DNA of 60,989 nt from a virus (Duplodnaviria > Caudoviricetes): positions 1 through 60,989 of IMG/VR virus record IMGVR_UViG_3300020207_000025, one strand, 5' to 3'. This document shows positions 3,761 through 57,732 of the stretch, piece by piece (within the stretch, counting starts at the first letter, position 1; every line of letters begins with the position of its first letter). The notes below the pieces were generated by a model, which worked only from the letters and a program-made list of their open reading frames with translations, had not been told where the DNA came from and did no database searches. The position numbers were made by a program, and so were the translations under genes.

Positions 3761-5158
3761 TTACTTTTGGAAAAATTTGATGATTAGGTCGTTTCCATCA
3801 TTAAAATAATTACCATATGGGGAATGCTTCATTTCATTCCAATTACCATTATAATATCTGTTTTGTGTACGAACACTGTAACCGATAGTGTAAGAACTGT
3901 TAGAAGTATCAGTCCATCCAAAACTATCCATAGCAGCTGTCATACTGAAACCATAAGAGACTCTATTACCGGTAATAGAGTCGAAACCATCAAAATCAGG
4001 TACCCTAAATATATTATAGATATATAACGCACACTTACTATATGGATTATTCGGATTACCACTCCACAAATCGCCATCGATAATTGCAATGTACCAATTA
4101 GAGGTTCCACCTGACGGTATCAGTTCTAAAGCACTCGAAAAATCTTGATATGAATTATAACTGGTTGTGATAATAGGATTCGCGTATTTTGGTAACTGTA
4201 TGGACCTGAACGTCCAAAATTCTTTATTCCCTGAAGAATTATATATTTGATTACCATTTGAATCAACAAACGGGGCTCCCCCTAAGTTATAATTAACAAA
4301 GGTACGACTGGCAGTAGAACTATTACTCGGATAGTTAGATATTTTACCATAAACAGGTTCAAAATAAAGAGCACCACCTAAATACGGAACCATATAATTA
4401 TAATCACCATCATTTTGATTAATACCAAAAACTACCCTATCATAGTAACCTCCACTAATTAAAGCATCACTTGAAGTAGCCTTTCTCGTCGTATAAGTAC
4501 CAAGATTCCATTCATACCCCCAATAATTTACGGGACCAGTATACTTACTTGCCTGAGGTAATGAACTACCACCAAACGCAGCCGGCGGTGTAGGTAACAT
4601 TGAAGCCATTGTCGATACTTTCATATAAGACGTTTCAGCTTTTGGAGAATTAGGTGTTAAGTCAACAATATCTTTACCACATTTGTGGCAAAATAAAGTT
4701 CTTCCTTCCCCTAACCCACTACCGTCATTAGATACTAATAAAGAATTTTGTGTTACAGTTTTACTTGCATTGTAATTAGTATTAAGATAGTCATTTAAGA
4801 CATCATAATATTGTACTTGAGATACACCAGGTATAGGTCCTTCCGCACTCATAACATAATCGAATACAGTATCTCTTAATGCAAAAATAGACGCTTGATT
4901 TTCAGTCGGACAGTTCTGACAGATATCATCACCAGTAATAATACTTGTACTACCATTACTACAGGTAGTTTCTACTTGATAGTAATAAGTTCTGAATGGA
5001 GATGGGTCAACATCCATATCATACCACGTCCCAACATAAGGAGCAACAGTGGCTTTCAAAACCCACGGTCCATTACTACTATCTGACCTATAAATTTTAT
5101 AAGACACAGCATTAGTACTGGTCGTCCATGTTATCTTAATTCTTGCGGATTCTGCCAT
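3761..5158 (-). CDS. Fibronectin type III-domain protein, putative virion/receptor-binding
   Basis: 465 aa. N-terminal IKITWTTS..AVSYKIYRSD...WYDMDV...TYYYQVETTC is FN3-like. The remainder is aromatic/Asn/Ser-rich and unassigned. Confidence 0.65.
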   Translation of the reverse strand: MAESARIKITWTTSTNAVSYKIYRSDSSNGPWVLKATVAPYVGTWYDMDVDPSPFRTYYYQVETTCSNGSTSIITGDDICQNCPTENQASIFALRDTVFDYVMSAEGPIPGVSQVQYYDVLNDYLNTNYNASKTVTQNSLLVSNDGSGLGEGRTLFCHKCGKDIVDLTPNSPKAETSYMKVSTMASMLPTPPAAFGGSSLPQASKYTGPVNYWGYEWNLGTYTTRKATSSDALISGGYYDRVVFGINQNDGDYNYMVPYLGGALYFEPVYGKISNYPSNSSTASRTFVNYNLGGAPFVDSNGNQIYNSSGNKEFWTFRSIQLPKYANPIITTSYNSYQDFSSALELIPSGGTSNWYIAIIDGDLWSGNPNNPYSKCALYIYNIFRVPDFDGFDSITGNRVSYGFSMTAAMDSFGWTDTSNSSYTIGYSVRTQNRYYNGNWNEMKHSPYGNYFNDGNDLIIKFFQK

Positions 5159-5174
5159 AATACTTATTTATTTA

Positions 5175-6947
5175 CTAACCCCAAATGAAGTCAGTCATAT
5201 ATTCATTCTCTACGTTTATGTTACTCGCACCTCTACAAACAGGTGTAGGTGTGGTCAAACTACTATTACATCCCGTACAATTTACATAGAAGATTGAAGG
5301 ACTGCCAAATACATTAGTCGAAGACGTTGAATAAGTCTGTCCTTGTGGCGGAGTATAAGGTTTACTAAACATACCAACATAATACCAACATGAACCTTGA
5401 TATGAGAATGATGTATTATAAGGTATCGGACCAACACTCACATCTTGACCAATCATAGTATTTGAACTACAAGATGCATATACAAAGACATTCTGTGGCA
5501 CACCCTGAGAGGTTGATGGTGTAATAGATGAAGTTATCGTTGGTGTTTGAGTTGGTGTTGGTGTATGTGTCTGAGTATTCGTTGGTGTTTGAGTCGGTGT
5601 ATATGTTGGTGTGGCAGTTTGAGACTGTGTAGGTGTCGGTGTTGGTGAAAGACATACACAACCTGGGTCTGCGTAAACATTCGCACCATCACCTGATACT
5701 ATATCAGCACTAACCGCACACACATTAACCCTTTCACGTCCATTTACAAACAAAGAATATGTTAATTTATCACAATCTTCAATTTCAAATTGAGCTCCTC
5801 GAGTACCGCCATATAATTCCCAATTCGTACAACACGGAGTAGTGGCACTCGGTGTTGGAGTATACGTTGGTGTAAAGTCAGGTGTACGTGAAATTGTCGG
5901 TGTTGGTGTTTGACTAATTTCTGGTGTATCTGAGACCGAAACAGTCGGTGTATGTGTTGGTGTTACCGCTGGTGTTTCTGATGCCGTTGGAGTTGGCGTT
6001 TGACTTACAGGTGGGGTATCAGAAAGAGATACAGTTGGTGTGTTAGTAGGTGTAGAGTCAGGTGTACGTGAAATTGTTGGGGTTGGTGTTTGACTAACAC
6101 CTGGTGTATCCGATACAGAAACAGATGGAGTATTTGTTGGGGTTACGGCAGGTGTTTCTGAAGCAGTTGGAGTTGGTGTTTGACTCACTGGTGGAGTATC
6201 AGAAAGAGATACAGTTGGTGTGTTTGTTGGTGTTACCGCAGGAGTTTCTGACGCTGTTGGTGTTGGTGTTGAACTTGAACCAGGAGTATCTGAAGGTGAA
6301 ACAGTTGGTGTATAAGTTGGTGTAATACTCGGAGTCATTGACTGAGTCATAGTCGGCGTATTAGATGGAGTAACCGTATTTGTTGGTGTGTTACTTGCAG
6401 TAATAGATGGTGTAATAGACGCAGTTGGAGTTACCGTTTGAGTAAGGGTTGGTGTTTGTGATGGAGGGTTAGATGGTGTAGGAGCTGGTGTACCCGTCGG
6501 AGTATTCGTAGCAGTTGCAGTTGGTGATGAGCCAGGTGTCGCAGAAACAGATATAGTTGGTGTATGTGTTGGTGTAACTGAAGGAGTTGCTGTTTGTGTT
6601 GGAGTTACTGTGGGAGTTGCCGTATTCGTTGGAGTCGGTGTACTACTCGGAGTATTTGAAGATACACACACACCACAGGTATTATAGACTCCATTGATTG
6701 ACATAACGTAGGAGTCAGGTGAACCATCAACATCACTATGATAAGTGAAACATTGAGTTACCTGTCCATTTGGTGTTTGTAATGTGGCTCTGAAGATATC
6801 CCCAATAGATATTGGATTTGTATTATATGAAAGGTCTCCATCAACATAAAAATAATTATTGGTATTACACTGTAATAATTTTTTAATATCATTACAACAT
6901 TCAGGTTGTTCACCAAATACATTAAAACCTACTCTTCCTGTTACCAT
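5175..6947 (-). CDS. Mucin-like Thr/Pro-repeat protein with Cys-rich modules
   Basis: ORF track gives 5175..6965; the start at 6947 (MVTG) avoids overlap with the protease gene. Long TPT/TPS repeats separate small Cys modules (CC...C, CxxC). Confidence 0.8.
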
Positions 6948-6948
6948 T

Positions 6949-8181
6949 TTAGGTTCTTGTTCCACCTTGCCAGTATGTGTTACCTGACAATTCCAAATTT
7001 ATGTCCCCACTAAGACCATTTACTATATGTAATTCAGTAGTCCCTGTATCTGAAAAGTAAACAGAATTACCCGTCCATGCGGAAATAGATAATTGCTCGG
7101 CAACTTTGTCAATGCGGTTCGCTAATCCATAAATAGTTTGACCGTTATAATTTGCACCGGCAAATACTAAACCAACAATCTTTCTTGTACCTGAAAAATC
7201 AGCTACCAAAGCAGAACCAGAATCACCACCATACACAGGATAAGGACATATAGAACCTGCAGGTGTTGTTGAAGCACTGGCGTAATATCTTATACAATCA
7301 CTGAAGTATATGGTTTCATTGACACCTTGATTATTATACTGAATACTTATGGTCGCGGCAACTGATGATGCAAATAACTTCATATCCCCCTCACCTTTAG
7401 GTCCTGTTGTACGACCAGCACTAAATAAGTTAATTCCATTGGTAACAAGACTATCAATTTCAGCGGTAGATGCAAATTCCAAAGGTTGAGTCCATCCATT
7501 CATACCATATTGTCTGTATGATGTCGTTGAACTAATATCACTTTGGTTTACAGTTGCTAATGCACCATCAACAGAGTTATATTCAGGAGTACCACTGATT
7601 GGTACATATCTTTTAACCAGACCAATCGAGTTTTGTAGACCACTGTTACCACTTTCATTAGGTTGAGTCACAAAATTATTCACAATATCTGTGTGTACTC
7701 CACTTTGTTGTCTTTCAGAGGCTAAGAACGCATTTTTTACCAATACATGATTATTAGAAACACCAACTAACGAATTAGTCTCAGTATCTACCGCCAAAAA
7801 CCCTAAAGTACCCACATAACTACCTAAATTAGTGTAATTTGTTACTGAAATACCACCTTGGAGTGGTCTAATCTGGTTTCTATTAGCAGGTGGAGTATTA
7901 ATCCACGTATAAAAATCTGAAGGGCAATTCTCCATGAAAACGAATTCACCTTCTTCAACATCCGTCTTTAATATTGACCCGTCGACCTCGATTTCTGATG
8001 GTAATAACTCATCTTCAGGTATTTCTTCCAATGGTCTTTTTTGTTTTACTGTAAAAACAACTGCATCTTCATCTGTCATCTTACCACCAACCGTTTTCTT
8101 TGTAATGGTCACACCCACCACATCCTCAGGGGTTATGTTATGGTAGTGTTTTGTTAGGTCTCTTAATAATTGGTTATCCAT
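6949..8181 (-). CDS. Trypsin-like (PA clan, Nal1-like) serine protease
   Basis: 410 aa. GTLG...SNNHVL (His), VDGALA (Asp), GGDSGSALV (Ser). N-terminal VVGV...VFTVKQKRP...LPSEI...TDVEE domain is typical of Nal1-like proteases. Confidence 0.85.
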   Translation of the reverse strand: MDNQLLRDLTKHYHNITPEDVVGVTITKKTVGGKMTDEDAVVFTVKQKRPLEEIPEDELLPSEIEVDGSILKTDVEEGEFVFMENCPSDFYTWINTPPANRNQIRPLQGGISVTNYTNLGSYVGTLGFLAVDTETNSLVGVSNNHVLVKNAFLASERQQSGVHTDIVNNFVTQPNESGNSGLQNSIGLVKRYVPISGTPEYNSVDGALATVNQSDISSTTSYRQYGMNGWTQPLEFASTAEIDSLVTNGINLFSAGRTTGPKGEGDMKLFASSVAATISIQYNNQGVNETIYFSDCIRYYASASTTPAGSICPYPVYGGDSGSALVADFSGTRKIVGLVFAGANYNGQTIYGLANRIDKVAEQLSISAWTGNSVYFSDTGTTELHIVNGLSGDINLELSGNTYWQGGTRT

Positions 8182-8184
8182 ATC

Positions 8185-11100
8185 TTAAAGGTTTGGTATA
8201 AACATAAATACTGTGAATGGTCCACCTTCAGTTGGAGTGACACTCGGAGTCGGGGTGTATGTTGGACTCACAGAGATTGATGGTGTATTTGTCGGACTAT
8301 TAGAAATCGTTGGAGTATTAGTCGGACTTACCGAAATTGTTGGCGTATTTGTTGGACTCACCGAAATGGTAGGTGTATTACTTGGACTTGGTGTTGATGT
8401 AATTGCAGGTCCACTACAACAGTTGTTACATATATTTGTTAATGTATATGCTGAAGTTGGATATTGAGGTGGGAATATTACTGTATTTTGTTGTGCACAT
8501 ATAGTAATAGTTGTCGGTACTTTATAGATAATACCATGTGACTGTCTTACAGTACCACATAATGTATCACTACACTCATCATACCAATATTCGAATAATC
8601 CTTCCGTACCCAATTTAGTAACTTCTAATTCATATACACTACAATCCTGTAAAATACTTGATGTTGATGGAGTTACTGTATGTGTCGGAGTAACAGTAGG
8701 TGTTGAAGTTACCGTAGGGGTTTGGGTTGATAATGGTGTATTAGTTGGTGTAGGACTTGGTGTTCCTCCCGGTGTTTGAGTAACTGTAGATGTTGGTGTA
8801 ATTGTTGCTGTATTTGACGGTGTCGGTGTATTAGATGACGTTACAGTTGCCGTTTGTGTTGGAGTGAGTGTCGATGTAGGTGTCGATGTTGGAGTTCCAC
8901 CAGGAGTCTCTGAAGGTGTAACGGTTTGTGTTACCGTTTGGGTTGGTGTATACGTAGGAGTAACACTTGAAGTAATAGACGGAGTAACTGTAACAGTTGG
9001 TGTTTGAGTTGCCGTCAATGATGGAGTTACCGATGGTGTCACAGAAGAAGTGATTGAAGGTGTCGGAGTTACTGTTGCCGTTTGAGTAGGGGTATTTGTT
9101 GGAGTACCACCTGGTGTCTCAGAAGGAGTTACCGTCTGAGTTGGAGTTGATGTTGGTGTTTCACTTGCAGTTACAGTTGGAGTTACAGAACCCGTAGGTG
9201 TATTAGTATTTGTTACCGTCGGAGTCACTGATGAAGTAACCGATGGTGTTGGCGTAATAGACGATGATGGAGTCACCGTTTGAGTCGGAGTAACTGAAGC
9301 TGTTGGAGTTACAGACGATGTCTGAGTAACCGTTTGTGTTGGAGTATTTGTTGGAGTAGAACCTGGTGTTTCTGACGGAGTAACAGTCTGAGTAGGTGTC
9401 AATGTTTGTGTATTTGACGGAGTAATAGTTGCGGTCAATGTAGGTGTAACACTTGCCGTTGGTGTAACTGATGCAGTTGGTGTCACACTCGCGGTTGGGG
9501 TAACAGAAGCCGTTGGAGTAACCGATGATGTAGGAGTATTTGTCGGTGTAACCTGAGGAGTCTCAGACGGAGTAACTGTTTGTGTTGGAGTTGACGTAGG
9601 TGTTTCACTCGCGGTCACAGTTGGTGTCACCGAAGCAGTTGGTGTATTCGTTGGTGTTTCAGTAGGAGTCGAAGTGACCGTAGATGTCACTGTTTGAGTT
9701 GGTGTACTTGTGTTAGTAGGTGTTACCGATGCTGTCGGAGTTACAGATGCCGTTGGTGTAACTGAAGATGTTGGAGTATTTGTAGGTGTCACCCCTGGTG
9801 TCTCACTCGCAGTTACAGTTTGAGTAGGTGTCAATGTTTGAGTATTTGACGGAGTGATTGTCGCAGTAATAGATGGAGTAACAGTCGATGTAGGCGTTAC
9901 CGAAGATGTTGGTGTTACTGAGGAAGTTGGAGTAACTGACGATGTAGGTGTTACAGATGCAGTTGGAGTATTCGTTGGGGTAGATATTGGTGTCTCAGAA
10001 GGTGTCACAGTCTGAGTAGGTGTAGATGTTGGAGTTTCACTTGCAGTGACAGTTGGGGTAACCGAAGCCGTAGGAGTCACACTCGCAGTAACCGTAGCCG
10101 TAACTGACGGTGTTGGGGTTACTGAAGATGATGGAGTCACTGTTTGTGTTGGTGTGACTGAAGCTGTTGGGGTTACAGATGAAGTCTGTGTAACTGTTTG
10201 TGTAGGAGTATTTGTTGGCGTAACCGCTGGTGTCGATGTCGGTGTCAACGTCGCAGTAACCGTAGGAGTAATAGTAGATGTAGGAGTAACTGATGCAGTT
10301 GGTGTTACACTTGCCGTTGGAGTGTTAGTTGGCGTCTCAGTTTGAGTTGGAGTCACTGAAGAGGTCGGAGTTACCGATGACGTAGGTGTGTTTGTTGGTG
10401 TCACACCAGGTGTTTCTGAAGGAGTAACAGTCTGAGTTGGAGTAGATGTGGGAGTTTCACTCGCAGTCACAGTAGGAGTAACTGAAGCCGTTGGTGTTAC
10501 ACTCGCAGTAATTGTTGCAGTCACAGATGGTGTAGGTGTAACTGATGAAGTAGGTGTTACTGAAGCCGTAGGTGTGACCGAGGCAGTTGGCGTAACTGAA
10601 GAAGTAGGTGTATTTGTAGGTGTACTTACAGGTGTTTCAGTAGGAGTAACCGTTTGTGTTTGAGTCACTGTTGGTGTATTACTTGCCGTCAATGTTGGTG
10701 TAACTGAAGCCGTAGGGGTAACTGTTGAAGTAACTGTCGCAGTTACCGATGGAGTTGGTGTATTTGATGTGGTTGGAGTAACAGAAGCAGTTGGCGTTAC
10801 CGATGCCGTTGGTGTGACAGATGAAGTCTGTGTTACCGTAGCCGTTGGTGTTGATGTAGGAGTCACTCCTGGCGTTTCAGAAGGTGTTACTGTTTGTGTT
10901 GGAGTAAATGTAGGAGTAACCGTCGCAGTAACAGTTGGGGTAATACTCGCTGTTGGTGTTACCGATGCCGTCACAGTAGCAGTCACTGAAGGTGTTGGCG
11001 TATTCGTTGGCGTCTCAGTCTGAGTCGGAGTGACCGATGAAGTAGGTGTTACGGAAGCAGTAACAGTTTGAGTCGGTGTAACAGTATTTGTTGGAGTAAC

Positions 11101-14100
11101 ACTTGCAGTTGGAGTGACTGATGAAGTCGGAGTATTCGTAGGTGTACTACCTGGTGTTTCTGATGGGGTTACTGTTTGTGTCGGAGTGAATGTAGGTGTA
11201 ACCGTAGCAGTAACAGTTGGAGTTATAGATGCTGTTGGCGTAACACTCGCAGTAATAGTGGCAGTCACAGAAGGTGTCAATGTCTGAGTTGGGGTTACTG
11301 AGCTTGTAGGTGTAACACTTGCCGTTGGAGTAACCGATGCAGTAACAGTTTGTGTTGGTGTTACAGTTTGAGTCGGCGTCACTGAAGCAGTTGGGGTAAC
11401 TGATGAAGTTGGTGTGTTAGTCTGAGTAACAGCAGGAGTTTCAGAAGCAGTCACAGTTTGTGTCGGTGTAAATGTTGGGGTTACAGTTGCTGTAACCGTT
11501 GGTGTGATACTTGCCGTTGGAGTGACTGATGCCGTCACTGTCGGAGTAACAGAAGCAGTAGGAGTATTAGTTGGCGTTTCAGTCTGTGTTGGAGTAACCG
11601 ATGAAGTTGGCGTATTTGTAGGTGTTAATGTAGGAGTAGGCGTAACACTTTGAGTTGGTGTAGGTGTCGGAGTTGGAGCAACAAAGATTACATCAACAGG
11701 ACAGGTACATGCGGAAGTGTTAACATTAGTAATACCCCAACTACTAATCACCTCACCAGGAGGAAGAATAGAATTAAAGTTATATTCAACTTGGTGGTCT
11801 CCAGCTGGCCATGTTCTCGTACCAGAATACGTAAATCCTGAACTACCAACCATATAACCACTAACCTCATAATCACATAAGGATTCTGCATTTACTGATA
11901 ATCCAGAATCTTGATATAAAGACAATCTAATCTTATCACCTTGTACCACATAACCCGTTAAATATTGAGTTGTCTGTGGACACGTTGCTGACGGAGTAAC
12001 AGTCTGAGTCGGTGTTGCCGTCGATGTAGGTGTTTGTGTTGGAGTGACAGAACTTGTTGGTGTAACACTTGCAGTTGGAGTAACTGATGCAGTAACAGTT
12101 TGTGTTGGTGTTACTGTTGATGTCTGAGTTACCGATGGAGTCACCGTTTGAGTTGGGGTAACTGAGGCAGTTGGAGTTACCGATGCTGTTGCTGTAACAG
12201 ATGAAGTCGGTGTATTTGTTTGTGTTACCGCAGGAGTCTCAGACGCAGTAACAGTTTGTGTTGGGGTAAATGTAGGAGTTACAGTAGCAGTAACTGTTGG
12301 AGTGATGCTCGCAGTTGGAGTAACCGATGCTGTTACGGTTGCCGTCACTGATGGTGTTGGGGTATTTGTTGGCGTCTCAGTCTGAGTTGGTGTGACAGAT
12401 GAAGTTGGAGTCACACTTGCTGTTGGAGTATTTGTAGGTGTCTCCGTTTGTGTAGGAGTGACTGATGAAGTCGGTGTAACTGATGATGTTGGAGTATTTG
12501 TAGGAGTGATTGCTGGCGTCTGTGAAGCAGTAACAGTTTGTGTTGGAGTAAATGTTGGGGTAACAGTTGAAGTTACAGTTGGTGTAATACTTGCCGTTGG
12601 TGTTACAGATGCCGTAACTGTTGCAGTTACAGAAGGTGTTGGAGTATTAGAAGCTGTTACTGTTTGAGTTGGAGTCACACTCGCAGTTGGAGTAACAGAG
12701 GCCGTTGGTGTCACACTCGCCGTAACTGTTTGAGTAGGTGTAACCGTGGCAGTTGGAGTAACAGAACTTGTTGGTGTATTAGTTGGAGTTATCGCTGGTG
12801 TTTCAGACGCAGTTACAGTCTGAGTAGGTGTGAATGTAGGTGTTACCGTAGCGGTCACTGTTGGGGTGATAGATGCCGTTGGTGTTACCGAAGCAGTCAC
12901 AGTGGCAGTAACAGAAGGTGTTGGAGTATTAGACGCGGTTACTGTTTGAGTTGGTGTTACGGAAGCCGTAGGAGTATTAGTCGGTGTGGTAGTATTAGAA
13001 GGTGTTACAGTATTAGTAGGTGTGACTGTTGACGTTGGAGTAACAGAAGCCGTTGGAGTATTAGTTGGTGTGATTGCCGGTGTAGATGAAGCCGTTACCG
13101 TTTGAGTCGGAGTAAATGTCGGAGTTACAGTTGCGGTGACTGTAGGTGTAATCGACGCAGTTGGAGTTACTGATGAGGTGACCGTAGGCGTCACACTGGC
13201 GGTTGATGTAAATGTAGGTGTCACTGTAGGAGTTACAGAACTTGTTACACTTGGAGTCAAAGTAGGTGTTGAAGAGGGAGTAAGGGTAGGTGTTGGTGTG
13301 AACTCAGCAGAACATACAACTCTTACATCATCAAGGAAGTTACCCAAACTCGTCGCAGTCGTCGAACTAAACATCAAGTTTAAGTTAGCATCAGGGGCAG
13401 TAAAAGTAACATACCTTAAATCCCATTGAGAAGTACTACCTGTAAATTCAGGTCCGACGAATTGTATACCATTAGTTGAACCAGATATAGCAACTCTCAA
13501 CCTATTTGCAGCACCACTCCTACCGCGATGTGCAAACTGAATCTGATAAGATTGTGATTGGATAGCATCAAAGTTTTGATATAGTGCTTGTGTAGAATCA
13601 TTAGCCGCTACCTCAGCAAAATAAGTACCCTGATAAGATGGGACACTTTGGAAACCTGTTCCCCATATCTCAATCTTATTATCACTGGCCGTAGTTTCCC
13701 ACGCTTGGATACATGATGCGTCAAATTGACCGTAACCACCAGCACCAGGTGCGGTACATCCATTTACAAAGGTTTCAAATCCTCCGTTGGTTAACTTACC
13801 ACAAGGTTCAGTGACCGATGGAGTAAGAGTTGGAGTTACAGTTGATGTTCTTGTCGGCGTATTCGAAGGAGTCACTGTATTTGTTGGAGTAACACTCGCA
13901 GTTGGGGTGTTTGTTGGGGTAACCGTATTAGAAGGTGTAACCGTATTTGTTGGAGTGTATGTTGGTGTGACTGTATTAGACGGAGTGACTGTATTAGTAG
14001 GTGTTACTGATGCGGTTGGAGTGTTAGTAGGAGTGACGGTATTCGATGGCGTTACCGAATTTGTGGGTGTTACGGAAGAGGTCGGTGTATTCGTAGGAGT

Positions 14101-16458
14101 GACGGCTGGTGTCGAAGATGCGGTTACCGTTTGAGTCGGAGTATAAGTTGGAGTTACCGTAGCAGTAACAGTTGGTGTGACTGATGCTGTTGGTGTTACA
14201 GACGCAGTTACTGTTGCCGTAACTGAAGGTGTCGGAGTATTAGAAGCGGTAACTGTTTGTGTTGGAGTAACTGAAGCGGTTGGAGTGACGGACGATGTAG
14301 GCGTATAAGTTGGTGTCACTGTATTAGATGGTGTAACCGAAGCTGTTACCGTTGCCGTTGGAGTTATTGTCCTCGTTGGGGTATTTGTTGGGGTAGCAGT
14401 GTTAGAAGGGGTAACTGACGGAGTAGCCGTAGTTGAAGGGGTTAGTGTTGCAGTCTTAGTCTGAGTAATAGTTGCAGTAATAGTAGGTGTTACCGAAGCG
14501 GTAGGTGTATATGTTGGAGTTACTGTATTCGTAGGTGTATTACTTGGCGTGACTGTATTTGTAGGTGTAACCGTATTTGTTGGTGTAACAGATGCAGTTG
14601 GAGTATTTGTCGGCGTCTCAGACGCAGTAGGAGTATTAGTCGGAGTTACTGTATTGGTAGGAGTATATGTTGGTGTAACAGTATTAGATGGTGTGACTGT
14701 ATTAGTCGGCGTAACAGACGGAGTTACCGTATTTGATGGCGTAACAGATGGGGTGACAGTATTAGATGGTGTGACTGTATTAGTTGGTGTTACAGATGGG
14801 GTAACCGTATTAGATGGAGTGACTGTATTGGTAGGGGTATAGGTAGGTGTAACAGTATTTGACGGTGTTACCGTATTAGAAGGGGTAACAGAAGAGGTTG
14901 GTGTATATGTAGGAGTCCTTGTAGGAGTTCTCGTAGGTGATACCGATGGAGTAACAGAAGGAGTTGCCGTTCTTGTTGGTGTACGTGTCGGTGTTCTCGT
15001 AGGCGATACTGATGGTGTGGCAGTTCTTGTTGGAGTTCTTGTCGGCGATACTGATGGTGTAACAGAAGACGTAGGTGTCACGGGTGGTGTAGTAGACGGT
15101 GTAACCGATGGTGTTGGTGTAGGTGAAGGACATGTTGGGCACTCACCATAATTACAAATATCTTCAATCCAACTACCTGCATCAATAAATACGTCAGGAG
15201 TACCAGTTGAATTTGTTACAATAGCATAACATTTATTATTACCCAATGGATTGATAACACCATCACCTTGGTACAATACGGTACCCGCTTGAACTGACAC
15301 TATTATAGTATCATTTGAATCACAACAATTCGCCAATAAGTATTTATTAATTGCAGGTGTAGAAGTGGGTGTAGGTGTAGGTGTTTTTGTCGGTGTTCTT
15401 GTTGGTGTTCTCGTAGGTGTCGGTGTTGGGGTTGCAGATACAGGTGTATCACCACAACAACTGGTACATGTTTCAAATACAGACGCAGTACATGAAGCCG
15501 CAGATTCACAATCAGGAACCACACCCTCAACAAAATAACAACACCCGTCACATCCGTCTAACTTTACAACCTGACCAGCATTAGGACATGGAGAAAGGTT
15601 AGTTATCGTTACAAATTGATTAGCCAAAGCATAACTACAATTAGAACAGTTACCAGGGTCTATTTGGTCACAGGGTATTAAGTAGACACAACAAGGGTTA
15701 TTAATGTTTGTAACATCATAACCGTCACCTGGTGGCATACCCGGCTCATAGGCAATTGGACCCTCTTGACCTTGACAGGCATCACATCCCCCACCTGGAT
15801 AAGTGGTTACAACACTACCAACAAATGAAACATTAGCCTGAGGACAATTCTCAGCACAAGAACCAGTGGCAATTACTTCCCAACAAGCGTTAATATTATC
15901 AATAAAGGAATCACCAATTGAAAAATTGTAGACATTCTGAATACAAGCGAAGTTACTACCAGTACGACAGTCTACGATACATGCAAACCCAACATTATGA
16001 ACAATATAACCATCAAGAAAATAATAATTTGGACCACTTAACGTAAAGTTATACAATGGGTCCATCGAATAAACAATTTCTTTGGATGTGACAGGTTCAT
16101 GAGTAATTTCACCATTAACCATCCTAACCAAATCATAATCACCCCCAACAATAAAATTTAAGGTCTGAACAAAACGATACTCACCTGAAGGTTTGTGATA
16201 ACCTAAAAGATGTTCGTCAATAACCCCCAAGTCATTTATCTGAAGGTAATTTCCCTGATATTGATAGACATCAACAACTTCAGGAGTCTGAACATCTTCA
16301 ATATTAAGTGTTAATGATTGTATTTCGGTAAAATCAATACCTGTTACAATTTCAGGTATATCGAAAGACAGAACTTGGTCCCCGAGTTGGATGTTTTCTA
16401 TCGCAACCTGAGAACCATCAGATAATAAAACTTTTTGTCCTAATTTATATCCTGCCAT
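8185..16458 (-). CDS. Giant mucin-like virion protein: N-terminal Hint domain, Cys-rich modules, about 2000 aa of Thr/Pro/Ser/Val repeats, internal galactose-binding-like domain
   Basis: 2757 aa. Residues 1-155 are Hint-like and end in IVHN. A Cys-rich region follows, then (TPTxxV)n repeats interrupted by an NGGFE...FAHRGR...FLDDV domain. Confidence 0.85.
8660..15445 (-). repeat. Degenerate Thr-Pro-Thr-X coding repeat tract (approximate bounds)
   Basis: Protein-level repeats such as [12 protein letters not shown] and TPTNTP. DNA copies differ at third codon positions. Confidence 0.85.
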
Positions 16459-16476
16459 TTCCTGATACCCTTAACC

Positions 16477-16484
16477 TATAAATA
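16477..16484 (-). promoter_or_regulatory. TATTTATA putative late promoter element
   Basis: Lies in the intergenic gap upstream of the 2757-aa gene. Confidence 0.6.
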
Positions 16485-16504
16485 ATCGGTTAACCCCTTT
16501 TGTA

Positions 16505-18403
16505 TCAGGATTCTTTCCTTAAACTTCCGTCGTAATGGTCAAATCTATCATGTTCTGTTGGACTTAATAATAAGATACCTGGATTAATGTTTCCTTTGAT
16601 TGTTTCTTGGAACATATAAGACATCCATGTTTGTTCATATGGACGAGCCCATTTCTCAGTTAGGAACATCTTTTCGTTACCGTATTTTGACACCACTTGA
16701 GGCCAGTTACAGTAATATATCTCACCATGAGCAAAGGGGATACCTTGGAAGGAATCCACCTTAGTCAGTTTTGTTTTTGGTGCATTTGGGTCCAACCCTT
16801 GAACAGGTAAGTTTGGTTTTTCAGGCCAATGTTCTTCTCTAATATGTTGAGGTACATTGTACCACGCCCACTGTACTCTGTTATCACCATAGAATTCGGT
16901 GAATGATAGTTTTACGAAATCAAAGTTGTTTTTCTTTGCAATTTTAAGAGAATTTCTATAAAGATTTTTAACATATCTATTGAATCCATTCTTACATACC
17001 TCACCCTGTTTTGGATAGAAGAACATATCATCTTCAAAGAAGAAATAATAGTCAAAACCTCTTTCTTCAGCATCCTCAGCAATCCATTGACGACCACCAC
17101 AAATACCTAAGTTGTCTTTCTTAACATAAATCATGTTATATTCTTCAGCCATCTCTTCATACTCAGGTGATGTTGATAAATCCGTTGAATTATCCAACAT
17201 TACCCACTGTGGTTTCGTTACAAAATCTTCATCGTATTGTTTCATTGATTCAATCAATGTTCTTACCTGATTAGGACTGTTAAATGTAATCACATAAAGA
17301 CCCACATTGTCAATATCCAAATCGTTGGTGATGATTTCAAACTTCGCTTCGTGTAATGGTTTGTGATTGTCATTTTTAACGTCTTCAAAGAACTTATTAA
17401 TTAATCCGTTACCATTGATTGGGAAATACTGATAATTTTCAGGGTATCTATACAACAATAATGTGAATAAAGACTCTTCCGTACCCATATATCCCTCATT
17501 TAGGGTAGATTTCATAATACCGTAGTATTCGTTGTTGAAATCAGCAATATCTTCAATAGGTCCACCGAAGAAACCACCACGACAAACCTTATTGACCTTA
17601 GCCCTGGCAATTTCATTCATCTTTTTAATTTCAAATCCGTGAATTTCAGTGTCAGACTCGTAAGGGAATGCCACGAAAGTCATCTTATCAATCTTTGTCA
17701 ATTTGTCTAAGACTCTATCGTGAGTAAAGTACCCTGAATGTACCGTGTTAGTGATACCCGCATCCAACCAGAATAAGTGTGTTGAACCAAACTTATCCAT
17801 AATCTTAGCATCATGTAATAAATAAGGTTTTGACATCACCAATGGATTATACATATCTAACCTACCTTGAGTAGACTCCGATAACCACCCTACTTGGTTT
17901 TGCCAATCAGGGTTTGTTCGGATTCTTTGAATCGGTTCATAGAATTCTCCTTTGAACCAGTCTTGGCTACGACCAATGAATTGTGTGTTTTCATCAGTTC
18001 TTCTTTCCATGACAAAATCTCTTAATTCTTCATCACCAAACACAATCATGTTGTAAGGTATCTTAAGAATCTCGTCAAATTTCTCTAAATAATGTTCAAA
18101 ACTACGTGACCATCCTTCTCCTAATTCATCACGTTTGATGTTCCATAAACCTGTAACTATAGTAATTCCATTGTTTTCCATTTCTCCGTAAAGTTCTTTG
18201 TATATGTAATTTTTTATTCCGACGATGTCTCCACCTTCTAATCCATAAACATAATCATGTTCATCAAATTTTTGTATGATTTTTTCCTTATCTTCATCAA
18301 CTAAACTTGACCATTCTAACCTCACAACTTTTGGTGAATGTCTTTCAAAATCAATTTGTTTGAAAATGGTATAATCATGTCCTTCAGCGTCAATTTTTAT
18401 CAC
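16505..18403 (-). CDS. Multidomain glycan enzyme: FkbM methyltransferase C-terminal part + HtrL/WlaTC-like domain + GT-A (GT2-like) glycosyltransferase
   Basis: Begins IKIDAEGHD (FkbM motif). ITIVTGLWNI...FWLDAG...GGFFGG...GTEE is HtrL/YibB-like. YVITFN...LDNS...NLGICGGRQ...FFEDD is GT-A with a DxD-type motif. Probably continuous with 18400..18864 across a frameshift. Confidence 0.75.
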   Translation of the reverse strand: MIKIDAEGHDYTIFKQIDFERHSPKVVRLEWSSLVDEDKEKIIQKFDEHDYVYGLEGGDIVGIKNYIYKELYGEMENNGITIVTGLWNIKRDELGEGWSRSFEHYLEKFDEILKIPYNMIVFGDEELRDFVMERRTDENTQFIGRSQDWFKGEFYEPIQRIRTNPDWQNQVGWLSESTQGRLDMYNPLVMSKPYLLHDAKIMDKFGSTHLFWLDAGITNTVHSGYFTHDRVLDKLTKIDKMTFVAFPYESDTEIHGFEIKKMNEIARAKVNKVCRGGFFGGPIEDIADFNNEYYGIMKSTLNEGYMGTEESLFTLLLYRYPENYQYFPINGNGLINKFFEDVKNDNHKPLHEAKFEIITNDLDIDNVGLYVITFNSPNQVRTLIESMKQYDEDFVTKPQWVMLDNSTDLSTSPEYEEMAEEYNMIYVKKDNLGICGGRQWIAEDAEERGFDYYFFFEDDMFFYPKQGEVCKNGFNRYVKNLYRNSLKIAKKNNFDFVKLSFTEFYGDNRVQWAWYNVPQHIREEHWPEKPNLPVQGLDPNAPKTKLTKVDSFQGIPFAHGEIYYCNWPQVVSKYGNEKMFLTEKWARPYEQTWMSYMFQETIKGNINPGILLLSPTEHDRFDHYDGSLRKES

Positions 18404-18864
18404 GTCATACGCAAGTATTTCATGCTTTTCAGAAGACTATCTAATGTTATTGTCGGTACTGTAATTCTTGTACCATATTTCTCAACAGTTTCTCTATCAC
18501 CTTCACTACCCAACCCATTCTTTGGTGGATATATTGCACTCATCCCCATAAAACAAGCATGAATCTTACCTTCTTCAATCGCAAAAGGATTGATGGTAAC
18601 CATTTCCACCTCACCATTTTGGTCAGATACTGCCGCATTTTCAAACTTATGTCTGTCACCCAAATTCTTAACTAATTTTTGAAAGTAATATGGAATTGGT
18701 TCAACATATAAACCAGTGAATTGATATGCATTGGTGTACCCAATCAACTCGTCAAAAGTTTGACCGTCCATTGCACCAATATTAAGTGTAAAAAGTTTGT
18801 GACCTTGTTTACCTAAGTGGTGTAAGGCTTCATTGAAATAATCTGTTCTCTCTAATACCACCAT
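18400..18864 (-). CDS. FkbM-family SAM methyltransferase, N-terminal part (frameshifted from the downstream ORF)
   Basis: LNIGAMDG..FD, GLYVEP, ENAAVS and VPTITLDSLL motifs. Track start is 18894, but the ATG at 18864 forms a TAATG overlap with the upstream stop. Confidence 0.75.
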   Translation of the reverse strand: MVVLERTDYFNEALHHLGKQGHKLFTLNIGAMDGQTFDELIGYTNAYQFTGLYVEPIPYYFQKLVKNLGDRHKFENAAVSDQNGEVEMVTINPFAIEEGKIHACFMGMSAIYPPKNGLGSEGDRETVEKYGTRITVPTITLDSLLKSMKYLRMT

Positions 18865-19391
18865 TATGTTAAGACTATAAAGTTTTTCTGCCACCCCTCA
18901 TATTGTGTCCATGTTTTCCCTAAAAGTTCTGCAGTTTCAATCGCAAAGTTGTACTCATCTTCTCTGTGAGTATCATCCATAATAATTGGCACATCCGTAT
19001 TGAATCTATCCCAATACTTCGCAATATTATTTCTCGTTTTTTGTTGGTCAATGTTTGGTGGACCATCTACAATAATCAAAGAATATTCTTCTGGTAATGA
19101 ATTAAATACCACTTCAGGGTCATACCATCCGTCAACAATTTCAGCTAAAATGTAATTTGCTTTTGGTGCCAACCTTGTAAATCTCTCCTGATGTTCAATA
19201 GGATAAACAATATGGTATCTACTTAACTCAATAGTTCCACTACCACTACCAAATTCAATAATAGTTTCACCTTGGGGGATATTATCAAGAATCCACTCAT
19301 AACATTCAACAGATATCGCCCATCCATCGAGGTTATTAAAGTTAATGTCTCTTGCTTTTAGTTTTGGATAAATTTCATTTAATCTATTCAT
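18864..19391 (-). CDS. Class I SAM-dependent methyltransferase-like protein
   Basis: 175 aa. IIEFGSGSGT (motif I), IIVDGPP and IIMDDT.R..E are typical of small methyltransferases in glycan loci. Confidence 0.75.
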   Translation of the reverse strand: MNRLNEIYPKLKARDINFNNLDGWAISVECYEWILDNIPQGETIIEFGSGSGTIELSRYHIVYPIEHQERFTRLAPKANYILAEIVDGWYDPEVVFNSLPEEYSLIIVDGPPNIDQQKTRNNIAKYWDRFNTDVPIIMDDTHREDEYNFAIETAELLGKTWTQYEGWQKNFIVLT

Positions 19392-20266
19392 AATTGGTCA
19401 AAAAATGTGTAAAAACTGATTTTATCTTTTAAGAACTCAGGAGTTACAGATTTATCAGTCATTGAAGAATCATCGTGATACCAAGTATTGAACTTATATG
19501 AACGATAATTTTCAGGTTTATCGTAAACCATAGTAGACATCATGGCTTCATGGTTTAATAAAAATTCTTTTGTTAATGCAGTCTGAGCATAGTCCTCAAA
19601 CCTTTGGAAAAAGTCAGGTAATTTACTTACATGACCTCCAATAATACCACCAATAGATAATGAATCATACATATGGTCTTTATCTAATATCTCATTAAGT
19701 TTTCTGTGGTCGTGGAAGAATAAAGTATTTCTAATATCAATCAATTTATCACCCACCCAATTGTTAATCTTTGGGAACGTTTCAGTATTAAAAATACCAT
19801 CATAAGTGTACCTATATTTATTTACTGAAAGACCTGTAATCTTATCCGCGTTTGAGTTGTATCTTCTCGGATACAAACCAATATGTGATAATCCACAATC
19901 AATCCAATATAGATAATCTAAACCCTCTTCCATTTCATCTTCCATCAAAGCAATTTTAGCCCAACCAACTTCCAAATAAAATTTGAACTTATCAGGGTTC
20001 TTTTCTTTGATTTCAATCATCTTTTTACTGTGACGGATATCTTCCAATTCTTTTACTTTGATGGTTACATTGGTCACCCCATTTTCATCAAGGAAATCTT
20101 GTAACGCCTCTGCAGTATTTGAACCAGTATAACATACAATAGGTAAACCCATCTGAGATAGTTGTACCAACGAATTGATATACCTGTCCCAACGGGCTTG
20201 AACCTTATGACCGAAGAATGGGAAATCCCCCAATCCGAAATATAAAAATGTTACTAATTTTGTCAT
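19388..20266 (-). CDS. HtrL/WlaTC-like glycosyltransferase-related protein
   Basis: YLYWIDCGLSH and IGGIIGG motifs parallel the WLDAG/GGFFGG domain of the 632-aa ORF. Track start is 20299; the ATG at 20266 gives an ATGA overlap. Confidence 0.6.
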   Translation of the reverse strand: MTKLVTFLYFGLGDFPFFGHKVQARWDRYINSLVQLSQMGLPIVCYTGSNTAEALQDFLDENGVTNVTIKVKELEDIRHSKKMIEIKEKNPDKFKFYLEVGWAKIALMEDEMEEGLDYLYWIDCGLSHIGLYPRRYNSNADKITGLSVNKYRYTYDGIFNTETFPKINNWVGDKLIDIRNTLFFHDHRKLNEILDKDHMYDSLSIGGIIGGHVSKLPDFFQRFEDYAQTALTKEFLLNHEAMMSTMVYDKPENYRSYKFNTWYHDDSSMTDKSVTPEFLKDKISFYTFFDQL

Positions 20267-21834
20267 TTTTTGAAGTAGTAATCCTCTAATAAGAGACAAT
20301 CCATCTCTGTTTTATCATACACCTTAAATGCATCTGAGTATCTTGATAAGATTGGTTTACCGTTTACGTTGAATGAAGTATTCAACAATACACCAATACC
20401 CGATTTCTTTTCAAACTCAGTCAATAAGTTATACAACCAAGGATTTTGTTCTTCAGTTACAGTTTGAACACGAGCAGTACCATCAACGTGAGTGATAGAA
20501 ACTAATTTTTCTCTCCACTCTTCTTTAACCGTTGGACAGAAACTCATCCATCTACTCTCACCCTCAAAGTCAAAGTACTTTTCAACATCCTCCAACTTAC
20601 AAACAGGTGCAAATGGTCTGTACCACTCTCTGTTTTTAACCTTAGCATTCAAAATATCTTTCATATCAGGATATGCTGGGTTACAAATGATACTACGGTT
20701 GCCCAACGCTCTCGGTCCGTGTTCTGAGGTACCTCTAACAACACCAACGATACTACCGTTAGCCAAGTCATCAGTCAATGTATCAATACTCAACTCACGA
20801 CCACGTCTTTCCTCAACGTGAGACATCAATGTATGTTTATCCAACACAGGTACACCCGCATATGTTACGTCAACAGCCTTCTCAGGTTTCATATGATTCA
20901 AAATCATACCTGTAGCAATACCACAGTCATTAGGGTTAGGTGGAACAAACACAGGACGGTCCAATATCTGTTGTAGTTTGGTGTTAAGAAGTATATTAAG
21001 AGCACACCCACCAACTGTAATCAACGGAATATTTGGATACTCATCCAAAAACGGTTGAGCCATCTCCATGAAAACATTCTCAAAAGCAATTTGTGATGTT
21101 TTGGCAACATCCCAAGATGTCTGTCCTGTCAATCGGTTATTAATATCAAAAACCAACCCCGTTTGTTCACCTAATTCACCTAAAAACTTGATATAGTTCA
21201 AACCATCAGGTTTTCTTCTATAGTAATTCTCAAAGTGTGGTAACCAATCTTCATTTACCTCACCATAAGAACATAATCCCATGATTTTTCCTGAATAGAC
21301 TAAGTTACCAATATTCAATGCAGGTTCCTTACGGATATCACCCAAGTAATCACCGAATGACATATAAGGGAAACCTAAATCTAAATTATATTTGTCCAAT
21401 AACGTAATTGTTTCCCTATCAGAAGCGTGATATACATTGAAGAAACCATCATTACCTCCTCCATCAAAAGAGATAATCAAAGCTTCATCGTAATCAGTTT
21501 GATATAGACCACAAGCCGCGTGACTCAAATGGTGAAGACAGTTAATGTGTTCTTTAGCAGGAATAAGTTTCTCATAGTGAACTTTAGTTCCACCTTCCAA
21601 AGTATCTGAGTTTAAGTAGTAACACTTATCATACTCAGAAATTCCATATTCATCTTCAATAAATTTTAAGATATGTTTAAGTAGATAAGGTCTTGTATAT
21701 GAAACCAAATACTGTGCATAACCCGCATTCTTTTCACTTAAAAATCTTTCTACTTCAATTACTGTAATTAATTCTCCATTCTCCTCAACCGCTACCGCTG
21801 CGTTGTGGGAACCATAAAACGCTATATTCGCCAT
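20263..21834 (-). CDS. NodU/CmcH-family O-carbamoyltransferase
   Basis: 523 aa. GSHNAA, HHLSHAA, SFDGGG, GKIMGL, GGCALN, NDCG, EHGPRALGNRSI, KNREWYRPFAP, THVDGTARVQTV, LLNTSFN. Confidence 0.93.
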   Translation of the reverse strand: MANIAFYGSHNAAVAVEENGELITVIEVERFLSEKNAGYAQYLVSYTRPYLLKHILKFIEDEYGISEYDKCYYLNSDTLEGGTKVHYEKLIPAKEHINCLHHLSHAACGLYQTDYDEALIISFDGGGNDGFFNVYHASDRETITLLDKYNLDLGFPYMSFGDYLGDIRKEPALNIGNLVYSGKIMGLCSYGEVNEDWLPHFENYYRRKPDGLNYIKFLGELGEQTGLVFDINNRLTGQTSWDVAKTSQIAFENVFMEMAQPFLDEYPNIPLITVGGCALNILLNTKLQQILDRPVFVPPNPNDCGIATGMILNHMKPEKAVDVTYAGVPVLDKHTLMSHVEERRGRELSIDTLTDDLANGSIVGVVRGTSEHGPRALGNRSIICNPAYPDMKDILNAKVKNREWYRPFAPVCKLEDVEKYFDFEGESRWMSFCPTVKEEWREKLVSITHVDGTARVQTVTEEQNPWLYNLLTEFEKKSGIGVLLNTSFNVNGKPILSRYSDAFKVYDKTEMDCLLLEDYYFKK

Positions 21835-23102
21835 TATAATGTACCTGTTAGTCTATCACACCATCCTTTTGAAGTTGAATACGGCCAAACAACCCAATAA
21901 GCTGGTTTTTCAGTTATGTTAAATTGTCTCCAAACTTTACAATACCCATCAGGGTCATTCATCATTCGGTCAATCTCTGCTTTGTCAGCATCCTTTCTGT
22001 AAATAGTGTTATCTTCCTTATCGTGGAACGCAACAACCCAATATTCATAATCTTTTTCAGGTACTTGGTCGTAACCGACATCAATACAGTGTTTATAGAT
22101 GGTAGCAAAACTTTCCAACCACTCTTCTTTAGTCTCAAATGAATCAATACCAGGGTTAGGTGGATAGTTCTTATCCAAAGTGTATTGTTGTACACCTCTT
22201 TTACTAAATTTCAATCCTGAGAATTCTTCATATTCTTCCAAAGACCTTACAGGACCAAAACCATATTTACCTTCGTGACCTTCTTGAGATTCACCGTCCA
22301 TACCAAACAACTTTCTGTTTGTTAGGTGTGATGTGTTGTTTTTACTTACCCAATCTTTGTCATCATCCCATTGTTTTGTTCTACCTTTACGAGTGTATTC
22401 GTGCCAAATCAAGACTTTGTGTGGGTGGAACATATCATAACCCCATGTGAACGCTCTTGCCGCGATTGAAATCTCCTCACCGTGGAAATAGTATTCAGGG
22501 TTGTGTTGTACCTCTTCACTGAATTCACCCAAAGTGAAACAGAAGTGTGCCGAGTAGAATCTCGCAGGAACAGGTGTGTCTAATTCTCTCCAACCTGGAA
22601 TAGTTTCAGGTAAAAAGAATACCGCTCCTTCAGGAATGAATCGGTCAAAGACCATTCTCCATGGTTCCTGAACTCTTGCGCCAGGGTCATTTTCAGGGTC
22701 AAATGATGATACATAACCCGTCAATAAAGGCTTTGGAATACCCATACCTTGAAGTTGTTTTACCATCGCAATCATCTCAACATCCCAATCCTTAGCGAAT
22801 CTCATGTGTGAGTCAATCTGTAAGGTATACATCTCACCACCATACATTTGTTGAATCTGATGTCTTGCCCAACATGCCCCTTTAGATTCTTCATAAGGAA
22901 CATCTAAAATGCGGAATCTTTCATCATCACGGTACTTATCCAAATTATCAAATCCATCCTCAGGATGGTATTGTCTACAAATCCCTAATATAACATTTTG
23001 GGGACGTTTTGCGTTTTTTAACATATCTTCAATAGTATTGACCAACTCAGGGTCACGATATGACGCAATCTGTACGAAAATTTTCTGTGCTCTTCTTGCC
23101 AT
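21834..23102 (-). CDS. GT60-like polypeptide/hydroxyproline alpha-N-acetylglucosaminyltransferase (Gnt1/OGNT family)
   Basis: 422 aa. IFVQIASYRDPEL, SKGACWAR, LQIDSHMRF (DSH metal motif), SAHFCF, YFHGEEI..AARAFTWGYD, WHEYTR. Confidence 0.88.
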   Translation of the reverse strand: MARRAQKIFVQIASYRDPELVNTIEDMLKNAKRPQNVILGICRQYHPEDGFDNLDKYRDDERFRILDVPYEESKGACWARHQIQQMYGGEMYTLQIDSHMRFAKDWDVEMIAMVKQLQGMGIPKPLLTGYVSSFDPENDPGARVQEPWRMVFDRFIPEGAVFFLPETIPGWRELDTPVPARFYSAHFCFTLGEFSEEVQHNPEYYFHGEEISIAARAFTWGYDMFHPHKVLIWHEYTRKGRTKQWDDDKDWVSKNNTSHLTNRKLFGMDGESQEGHEGKYGFGPVRSLEEYEEFSGLKFSKRGVQQYTLDKNYPPNPGIDSFETKEEWLESFATIYKHCIDVGYDQVPEKDYEYWVVAFHDKEDNTIYRKDADKAEIDRMMNDPDGYCKVWRQFNITEKPAYWVVWPYSTSKGWCDRLTGTL

Positions 23103-23154
23103 AATTTTTAATGTTTGTATTAAGAATAATCAAGAATTATTTAAGATAAAGGGA

Positions 23155-23162
23155 TATTTATA
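23155..23162 (+). promoter_or_regulatory. TATTTATA putative late promoter element for the plus-strand small ORF
   Basis: Motif is on the plus strand, 3 nt before the ATG at 23166. Its orientation flips with the gene orientation. Confidence 0.6.
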
Positions 23163-23165
23163 GAT

Positions 23166-23339
23166 ATGAAACTACTTAAAACAATAAAAAGATTAGTTAA
23201 AGAGTCAGAAGAAAACTTGGACCAAGCTATACAAAATAGTGCAACTCCAAAAGAAGTTAAGGCTCTTGAAGAAAGCTATACAGAATCGTTAAATCTACTT
23301 TCACTATACGAAAGTATTGAAAACGAAAAAGAGGACTAA
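23166..23339 (+). CDS. Small (57 aa) helical protein, hypothetical
   Basis: Manual translation MKLLKTIKRLVKESEENLDQAIQNSATPKEVKALEESYTESLNLLSLYESIENEKED*. Fills the intergenic gap, with the motif upstream and a terminator at its end. Below the ORF-track size cutoff. Confidence 0.7.
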   Translation: MKLLKTIKRLVKESEENLDQAIQNSATPKEVKALEESYTESLNLLSLYESIENEKED

Positions 23340-23357
23340 TTTCTTAATCCTCTTTTT
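23326..23357. terminator. Bidirectional intrinsic terminator
   Basis: AAAAAGAGGA...TCCTCTTTTT inverted repeat between the convergent genes 23166..23339 (+) and 23391..26333 (-). Confidence 0.75.
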
Positions 23358-23390
23358 GTCATTCTTTATATTTTATTGGGTTTCTTTTCT

Positions 23391-57261: not shown

Positions 57262-57267
57262 CTACTA

Positions 57268-57732
57268 TTAAATATTGATGATTATGAAATCTTTTGATTG
57301 GAATGTATTGTCGGTGATGGTATAATCTATTCTCAATTTTGCCGTATATTCTTCAACACCACGACCTGGTATTCTATATATACCACCGATACCTAACTTT
57401 TCAGTATTCAAATCACCTTGCGCATCTAAATCATCCAAATAAGGTGTAATCGTTATTTCATTAATTGTTAAGTTAGGTATGTACTTTTCAACCGAATTTG
57501 TAATATCCTCTTTGATTGCTTCGAAGCTTGTACCATCCATCGGTTCGAAAATAAATTCATAAATTCGTGTTCCAAAATCAGGTAAATAATATCTACTACC
57601 CTTTCTGGTAAGTATCAAATGAAGTAAGTCAGTTCTAATCTCCTCATCAGCAGTCTGTGAAAGAGAAAGATACTTACCATCTTTACTATCCTGAAAAGGA
57701 AAATTAATACCGTATGTTTTACCGTCAGCCAT
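57268..57732 (-). CDS. Baseplate wedge subunit / sheath initiator (T4 gp25 / gpW-like)
   Basis: 154 aa. GINFPF...IRTDLLHLILTRKGSRYYLPDFGTRIYEFIFEP. Confidence 0.88.
   Translation of the reverse strand: MADGKTYGINFPFQDSKDGKYLSLSQTADEEIRTDLLHLILTRKGSRYYLPDFGTRIYEFIFEPMDGTSFEAIKEDITNSVEKYIPNLTINEITITPYLDDLDAQGDLNTEKLGIGGIYRIPGRGVEEYTAKLRIDYTITDNTFQSKDFIIINI

Follow-up and report, generated by a model that had tools for sequence, protein, structure and literature searches.

An N-terminal Hint domain that may release itself by asparagine cyclization on a giant mucin-like protein of an uncultured phage

The DNA analyzed here (the window) is an IMG/VR virus fragment of 60,989 bp (IMGVR_UViG_3300020207_000025) with a GC content of 38.6%, and this report deals with a Hint (Hedgehog/intein) domain at the start of its giant open reading frame (ORF). 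Since the completeness of the window is estimated at 20%, the phage genome should be about 300 kb, and the source phage of the giant fiber gene is a roughly 300-kb, myovirus-like, uncultured jumbo phage. The giant ORF (8185..16458, minus strand, as are all features of this gene given below) translates into a protein of 2757 amino acids. The N-terminal Hint domain is followed by a Cys-rich region and then by long Thr/Pro/Ser-rich tracts, with small Cys-containing globular segments between them. With 30.5% Thr, 14% Pro, and 11.5% Ser, the protein has a mucin-like composition, and it is probably a glycosylated virion fiber. Three related IMG/VR loci (L002 to L004) carry orthologues of 2499, 2574, and 3120 amino acids.

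The Hint domain comprises residues 1 to 155 (15994..16458), has a mass of about 17.5 kDa, and contains no Cys; it is supported by profile matches, an AlphaFold2 model, and the ratio of nonsynonymous to synonymous substitution rates (dN/dS). The adjacent Cys-rich region (residues 156 to 335; 15454..15993) has 22 Cys and belongs to no known family. The non-repeat segments of the giant protein yielded a single weak match, to DUF642 (E 0.013), at about 12949..13560, and this segment may be a carbohydrate-binding-type module of the fiber. The ATG of the giant gene is preceded by a 46-nt spacer (16459..16504), beyond which the upstream gene ends in a different frame. Compared with the 60 nt ahead of the ATG in L002 to L004, the spacer sequence is conserved in the four phages (AAAAGGG.TTAACC.ATTATTTATAGGTTAA), and an inverted repeat, CCTGATAC...GTATCAGG, flanks the window copy; the element may be a promoter or a regulatory element.

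Searches with the window protein alone gave little. In Pfam, only residues 7 to 33 matched Hom_end_hint (E 5e-4, 20.5 bits, below the cut-off of 32.1), and PT-HINT (PF07591) returned no match at E<=10, its gathering cut-off thus not being reached. A single-sequence search of PDB found weak matches only, to Prp8 and to block A of PI-SceI. Five close database homologues (63-69% identity) and the three IMG/VR loci then served to build a first family profile of the six closest sequences, which found 115 matches at E<=1e-3 among 1.84 billion representative proteins. When 20 of these matches were scanned against Pfam, 16 contained Hint-type families (Hom_end_hint, PT-HINT, Intein_splicing, Hint, Hint_2, and Vint), several of them far past the gathering score; three others had no match (P0009, P0015, and P0106), and one matched Collagen only (P0078). 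Among the Pfam-verified proteins, P0013 had the lowest family-profile E-value (2e-15) and matched Pfam Hom_end_hint at 4e-46, and P0017 (family profile E 3e-11) matched PT-HINT at 5e-36. The relative P0095 exceeded the PT-HINT gathering cut-off with 32.1 versus 27.7 bits.

Structural comparisons agreed with the profile searches. A profile made only from proteins that begin with this Hint domain found Tetrahymena thermophila BIL2 (6y75), a bacterial intein-like (BIL) domain, in PDB with an E-value of 6e-4. With a wider profile of 47 rows, the E-values were 4e-12 for BIL2 and 1e-11 for the Clostridium thermocellum BIL. The same 47-row alignment gave an AlphaFold2 model with a predicted local distance difference test score (pLDDT) of 87.2 and a predicted template modeling (TM) score of 0.79, in which the Hint domain is whole rather than one part of a split domain. 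In a Foldseek search of PDB, the matches listed (ranks 1 to 50) were all Hint folds of BIL, intein, Hedgehog, or Vint proteins, with target-normalized TM-scores of up to 0.75-0.76. In BFVD, the model matched mostly phage Hint-domain proteins, the top ones annotated as 'Hint domain containing protein', although a few of the best matches had other labels such as fibronectin type III or PASTA. Independently, a protein-language-model search led to phage PT-HINT and Intein_splicing clusters. Residues 1 to 155 are therefore a genuine Hint fold, placed in the superfamily by both fold and sequence homology. The original prediction had recognized a Hint pattern in these residues from the letters alone; the residues map exactly to 15994..16458, all the motifs that it quoted are present, the fold that it proposed is recovered by modeling, and the profile search to which it looked for confirmation falls below threshold with the query alone and is significant when the family profile is taken to Pfam-verified Hint proteins.

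The catalytic positions were mapped by alignment to PI-SceI and to relatives that retain every motif (such as ...GNS-C-FAKGSQVLMADGS..., TKEH, and ...VHN). Gly3 (16450..16452), preceded by Met-Ala only, occupies Hint position 1, the place of the catalytic Cys1 or Ser1 of inteins. Block B reads I80-D81-E82-H83 (16210..16221) where canonical relatives have TKEH, TGDH, or TYEH, so that Ile80 stands at the Thr position and His83 at the His position of TxxH; the closest homologues have Asn or Tyr instead of His83. Asn137 and Asn144 correspond to positions 4 and 13 of block F. His154-Asn155 (codons CAT AAT, 15994..15999) are positions 6 and 7 of block G, aligned by the 47-row profile with His-Asn143 of BIL2, and form the predicted asparagine-lyase site. 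The +1 residue is Val156 (codon GTT, 15991..15993), at which the predicted new N terminus, VGFACIVDC..., would begin.

Because +1 is Val, splicing cannot occur. A class 2 or class 3 intein mechanism was also rejected, since +1 is non-nucleophilic and block F position 4 is Asn, not Cys. Upstream, an in-frame TAA (16471..16473) lies four codons before the ATG in the window, and in L002 to L004 a stop codon immediately precedes the ATG. The open frames coincide with the ORFs, the one in the window reaching just 4 codons past the ATG, and the in-frame stops 0 to 4 codons upstream rule out an N-extein. These results bear out what the original prediction had said of the domain, namely that it lacks an N-extein and the position-1 Cys or Ser, that block B is IDEH and +1 is Val, and that splicing is not to be expected; its description of the whole as a giant mucin holds for the composition.

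The window protein is a member of a recurrent class. A 10-sequence alignment, used in two more database searches, completed a set of 49 proteins, the window and the three loci included, that begin directly with this Hint domain; all 49, from many contigs, share the same start point. The class contains heads on giant Thr/Pro-rich bodies of the window type, M[VI]GYKVGQKV... heads, MAG[LK]N.QLVRLP... and MSVKNGQLVRLY... heads on collagen-like bodies, and a small group, MSR[YF]-C..., with a four-residue leader in which Cys1 and TGDH are retained. The heads of the Thr/Pro-rich and the collagen-like bodies share about 26-31% identity. One protein, P0071, combines the N-terminal Hint domain and a collagen-like body with a C-terminal Peptidase_S74 chaperone, and a class-related protein of 871 amino acids has a Hint head on a body without collagen repeats. 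When viral contigs were scanned with a head of the collagen type, 17 loci were added, all encoding Hint-first collagen-like proteins (947-2184 amino acids), several of which are near-identical to one another, and one of which (L009) is 96% identical to P0134. At each of the 17 loci, an in-frame stop lies 1 to 4 codons upstream.

Other placements of the domain occur outside this class. In many relatives (P0013 with 1757 amino acids, P0052 with 4119, P0019, P0025, and others), at least four complete Hint domains are strung head to tail, with His-Asn lying only a few residues ahead of the next Cys1, and tandem and C-terminal placements are common among relatives.

The position of a Hint domain at residue 1 is odd enough to raise the question of a mis-called start, with an N-extein supplied by upstream translation, frameshifting, or trans-splicing and the domain being an ordinary or split intein. 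That oddity is the only support for such an arrangement, which we regard as very improbable and rejected in view of the in-frame stops in the window, in L002 to L004, and at 17/17 collagen-type loci. Further points against it are the common start of all 49 class members, the completeness of the Hint domain, and the non-nucleophilic +1 residue. The lineage of the window phage has one Hint copy per genome: no second clear Hint domain was found in the window or, with a wider profile and Pfam PF05203, in a 297-kb, 99%-complete relative, except for a marginal 29-residue match (E 0.012), which also argues against a split partner. For the same reason, a two-protein ligation, in which the unmasked N terminus would attack the thioester of a second Hint protein of that phage, is not supported.

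Conservation within the class was then counted over the 49 sequences, of which 15 are fragments that stop before block G; three junk-aligned fragments (P0016, P0141, and P0151) were set aside. At position 1 there were 2 Cys and 19 Gly, and the residue was deleted in 28. The block B Thr was found in 5/48 sequences, and the aligned block B His in 12/48. Block F position 13 was Asp in 18, Ser in 7, Asn in 4, and His in 1. The His-Asn pair was present in all 30 sequences that reach the column and in 17/17 further viral loci. The +1 residue was Pro, Val, Ile, Ala, Gly, Glu, or Asn; no sequence had Cys, Ser, or Thr there. H154 and N155 are two of the eight columns that do not vary in the 10-sequence alignment (26-69% identity). 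Pairwise comparison of the four full-length genes gave a dN/dS of 0.14-0.21 for the Hint domain, at a synonymous rate (dS) of about 1.0-1.7, which is near saturation, and of 0.19-0.39 for the adjacent Cys-rich region, so the Hint domain is at least as constrained as its neighbor. The Hint domain is under purifying selection.

Since the front-end residues have decayed across the class and His-Asn is invariant, a single-turnover cleavage by Asn cyclization is favored. On this pattern of residues, we propose that the Hint domain is a single-turnover asparagine lyase that would cut N155-V156, and we put the probability of this reading at about 0.5. Cyclization at His-Asn with release of the VGFACIVDC chain, as originally predicted, is the best-supported mechanism for the predicted cleavage. 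We infer the cleavage, its timing, and its purpose from the fold, homology, architecture, conservation, and purifying selection described above. Once the Hint domain has folded, the side-chain amide of Asn155, aided by His154, would attack its own backbone carbonyl; a C-terminal succinimide would form as the N155-V156 bond is cut, leaving a free 17.5-kDa Hint domain and a mature fiber of about 2600 amino acids starting with VGFACIVDC. The Hint domain would thus act as a self-removing N-terminal cap, either an intramolecular chaperone or an assembly mask for the tail-docking end of the fiber, and its removal could be slow or pH-dependent.

The chemistry has precedents in the intein literature. 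Excerpts of PMC4031507 describe how cyclization of Asn G:7, assisted by His G:6, cuts the C-terminal junction, how type A BILs undergo C-terminal cleavage by Asn cyclization with no need of a +1 nucleophile, how His F:13 is dispensable in some inteins, and how low pH favors C-terminal cleavage. Asn cyclization uncoupled from the earlier steps is termed 'C-terminal cleavage' in the sections of PMC7765530 consulted, and it is exploited in self-cleaving tags. A role as a maturation module fits the finding that one kind of head tops two unrelated fiber bodies, and that P0071 also ends in the self-cleaving Peptidase_S74 chaperone.

Several observations weigh against self-cleavage or against the reach of the evidence for it. 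Asn cyclization is slow in many inteins when uncoupled from the earlier steps, as PMC4031507 notes in the part consulted. Block F position 13, a His in many inteins, is Asn in the window and His in only 1 member of the class. Pro at +1, in 11/34 class sequences and 11/17 collagen-type loci, may not be compatible with intein-type cleavage. The good AlphaFold2 model owes its quality to the canonical Hint proteins in the alignment: from six close sequences only, the pLDDT was 40.6 and the model was unusable. The canonical rows of the 47-row alignment were recruited through significant library-wide E-values. In cultured phages, tblastn searches with the 340-residue N terminus and with the collagen-type head did not find the N-terminal form, and a megablast search with the DNA of the upstream cluster (16400-24000) retrieved no phage sequence resembling it.

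The N termini of phage fibers are usually attachment domains, and the giant gene lies in a structural module, with baseplate-wedge genes at 55423..57732 and a tail-fiber-like gene at 26438..29308. The Hint domain could accordingly be catalytically dead and retained as a structural head, either a baseplate or tail docking adaptor or a folding nucleus, with His-Asn kept for packing. The loss of the front-end catalytic residues and the presence of His at block F position 13 in a single sequence fit such a head, and purifying selection is equally compatible with it. We nevertheless consider it less likely than self-cleavage, if the most serious of the alternatives, since a structural role does not predict that His-Asn stays at 30/30 and 17/17 amid the decay of Cys1 and of the block B Thr and His. 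In the account of PMC4031507, Hint lineages with no C-terminal cleavage, the type B BILs, lack block G, having lost it, so the Hint fold does not need His-Asn.

A further explanation takes its cue from pre-toxin Hint domains, which precede variable toxin modules. The head could be a recombination handle or the border of a mobile cassette for swapping fiber bodies, with cleavage secondary. Related heads do sit on unrelated bodies (Thr/Pro-rich, collagen-like, and the 871-residue protein that has no collagen repeats), and the tandem and C-terminal arrangements of relatives are in keeping with mobility. However, the 26-31% identity between the heads of the two main body types is insufficient for homologous recombination between them, and dN/dS of 0.14-0.21 with dS of about 1-1.7 indicates that selection acts on the protein, not on the DNA. 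We therefore regard a handle function as improbable, and self-cleavage by Asn cyclization remains our preferred reading.

By its features, the domain is not an intein, since the N-extein, the position-1 nucleophile, and a Cys, Ser, or Thr at +1 are all missing and the C-terminal His-Asn alone is retained; nor is it a Hedgehog (Hog) processor, there being no cargo in front and no Cys1. If it cleaves as predicted, its closest parallels in mode of action are type A BILs and intein tags engineered to cleave at the C terminus. For type A BILs, we compared it with the work of Amitai 2003 and Dassa 2004 as summarized in the parts of PMC4031507 and PMC7765530 consulted. The two share the Hint fold (2lwy, the C. 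thermocellum BIL, TM-score 0.75, profile E 1e-11), a C-terminal His-Asn with no nucleophile at +1, cleavage (predicted for the window domain) rather than splicing, and a placement in variable surface-type proteins. In contrast to type A BILs as summarized there, which have Cys1, an N-terminal flank, and a thioester, the window domain has neither Cys1 nor a flank, and its block B is degenerate; this keeps it out of type A in the strict sense. In engineered C-terminal-cleaving mini-intein tags, as section 5.1 of PMC7765530 describes them, the intein likewise stands ahead of the cargo, its N-terminal chemistry has been switched off, and Asn cyclization frees the cargo with a new, defined N terminus. 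Such tags are laboratory constructs, whereas the window domain would be a natural and conserved counterpart on phage structural proteins.

The best structural and profile match, BIL2 of the T. thermophila BUBL protein (6y75/6tmm; Foldseek E 2e-6, profile E 4e-12), is, according to excerpts of PMC8616854, a Hint domain that its host employs to mature proteins and not a selfish element. It differs in being internal, in retaining Cys1, and in conjugating a ubiquitin-like domain via a thioester. Peptidase_S74 (PF13884) of phage tail fibers and spikes is also a self-cleaving terminal module on fibrous proteins, co-occurring with the N-terminal Hint domain in P0071, but it is C-terminal, works through a Ser-Lys dyad, and is unrelated in fold. 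Among cultured jumbo phages, the canonical relative P0095 matched 53 records with E-values down to 2e-15, mostly of Erwinia phages, with Dickeya and Yersinia phages besides, in which the same Hint clade is found at the C-terminal end of virion structural proteins. One of them, gp108 of Dickeya phage vB_DsoM_AD1 (NC_048054; locus L008, 5014..6453), is annotated as a virion structural protein; its N-terminal part is collagen-like, and its Hint domain is C-terminal. Its polarity is opposite to that of the window protein and its chemistry is full, with Cys1, THEH, His-Asn, Thr at +1, and a tail of 10 residues.

The genes next to the giant gene include an upstream modification cluster (16505..23102, minus strand) with an FkbM methyltransferase/HtrL gene, two unknown ORFs, a carbamoyltransferase, and a PF11397 N-acetylglucosamine-type glycosyltransferase (E 4e-68), annotated with Pfam and PHROGs for the window ORFs. 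By ORF size and order, the cluster is partly syntenic in L002 (3351..9954), L003 (6958..9954), and L004 (3671..9954); an ORF of 523 amino acids, the size of the carbamoyltransferase, is present in L002 and L004 and absent from L003. The gene content suggests that the phage may encode the O-glycosylation and decoration of its own Thr/Pro-rich fiber. The methyltransferase/HtrL gene (16505..18894, minus strand) is split in the window into ORFs of 164 and 632 amino acids that overlap by 4 nt near 18400, and is a single ORF of 796 amino acids in L002; the split reflects a frameshift or else a fault in the assembly. The ORF next to the giant gene on its downstream side (6949..8181, minus strand; 410 amino acids) matched PHROG 20754 'protease' at E 5e-22; it had no Pfam match, and its PDB matches to 3C-type peptidases were at chance level only. 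In a 168-kb IMG/VR contig (L024, region 3886..16261), a Hint-first collagen-like giant adjoins a second collagen-like tail-fiber gene, 2-oxoglutarate-Fe(II) oxygenases, and a glycosyltransferase-oxygenase fusion, and these modification genes parallel the cluster beside the mucin-like protein of the window.

To our knowledge, known Hint domains are either internal, as inteins and BILs, or C-terminal, as Hedgehog-type processors, and the front-end thioester is central in all of them. Literature searches, covering search listings and cited passages, did not turn up any account of phage fiber proteins with a Hint domain at the N terminus. What goes beyond the original prediction is the recurrence: the Hint module also heads collagen-like giant fiber proteins of other phages. 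For annotation, the encoded N terminus of these giant proteins probably differs from the mature one. The family would also offer naturally optimized, Cys-free, C-terminal-cleaving Hint domains with Val, Ile, Pro, Ala, or Gly at +1 as candidate self-cleaving tags, and would be the natural counterpart of the tags made in the laboratory.

Taken as a whole, the picture that we put forward tentatively, at a little under even odds, is that large uncultured phages may have reduced the Hint domain to a pure, single-turnover asparagine lyase, a self-cleaving cap at residue 1 of their largest mucin-like and collagen-like virion proteins, which would mask the docking end or chaperone the fiber and would be removed with no protease. 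If so, a conserved residue-1 family devoid of front-end chemistry would be a natural use of the C-terminal half-reaction alone. Next to splicing, Hedgehog-type transfer, and BIL processing, it would be the fourth use that nature makes of the Hint fold, and it would add a new step to the maturation of phage fibers beside the C-terminal S74 chaperone.

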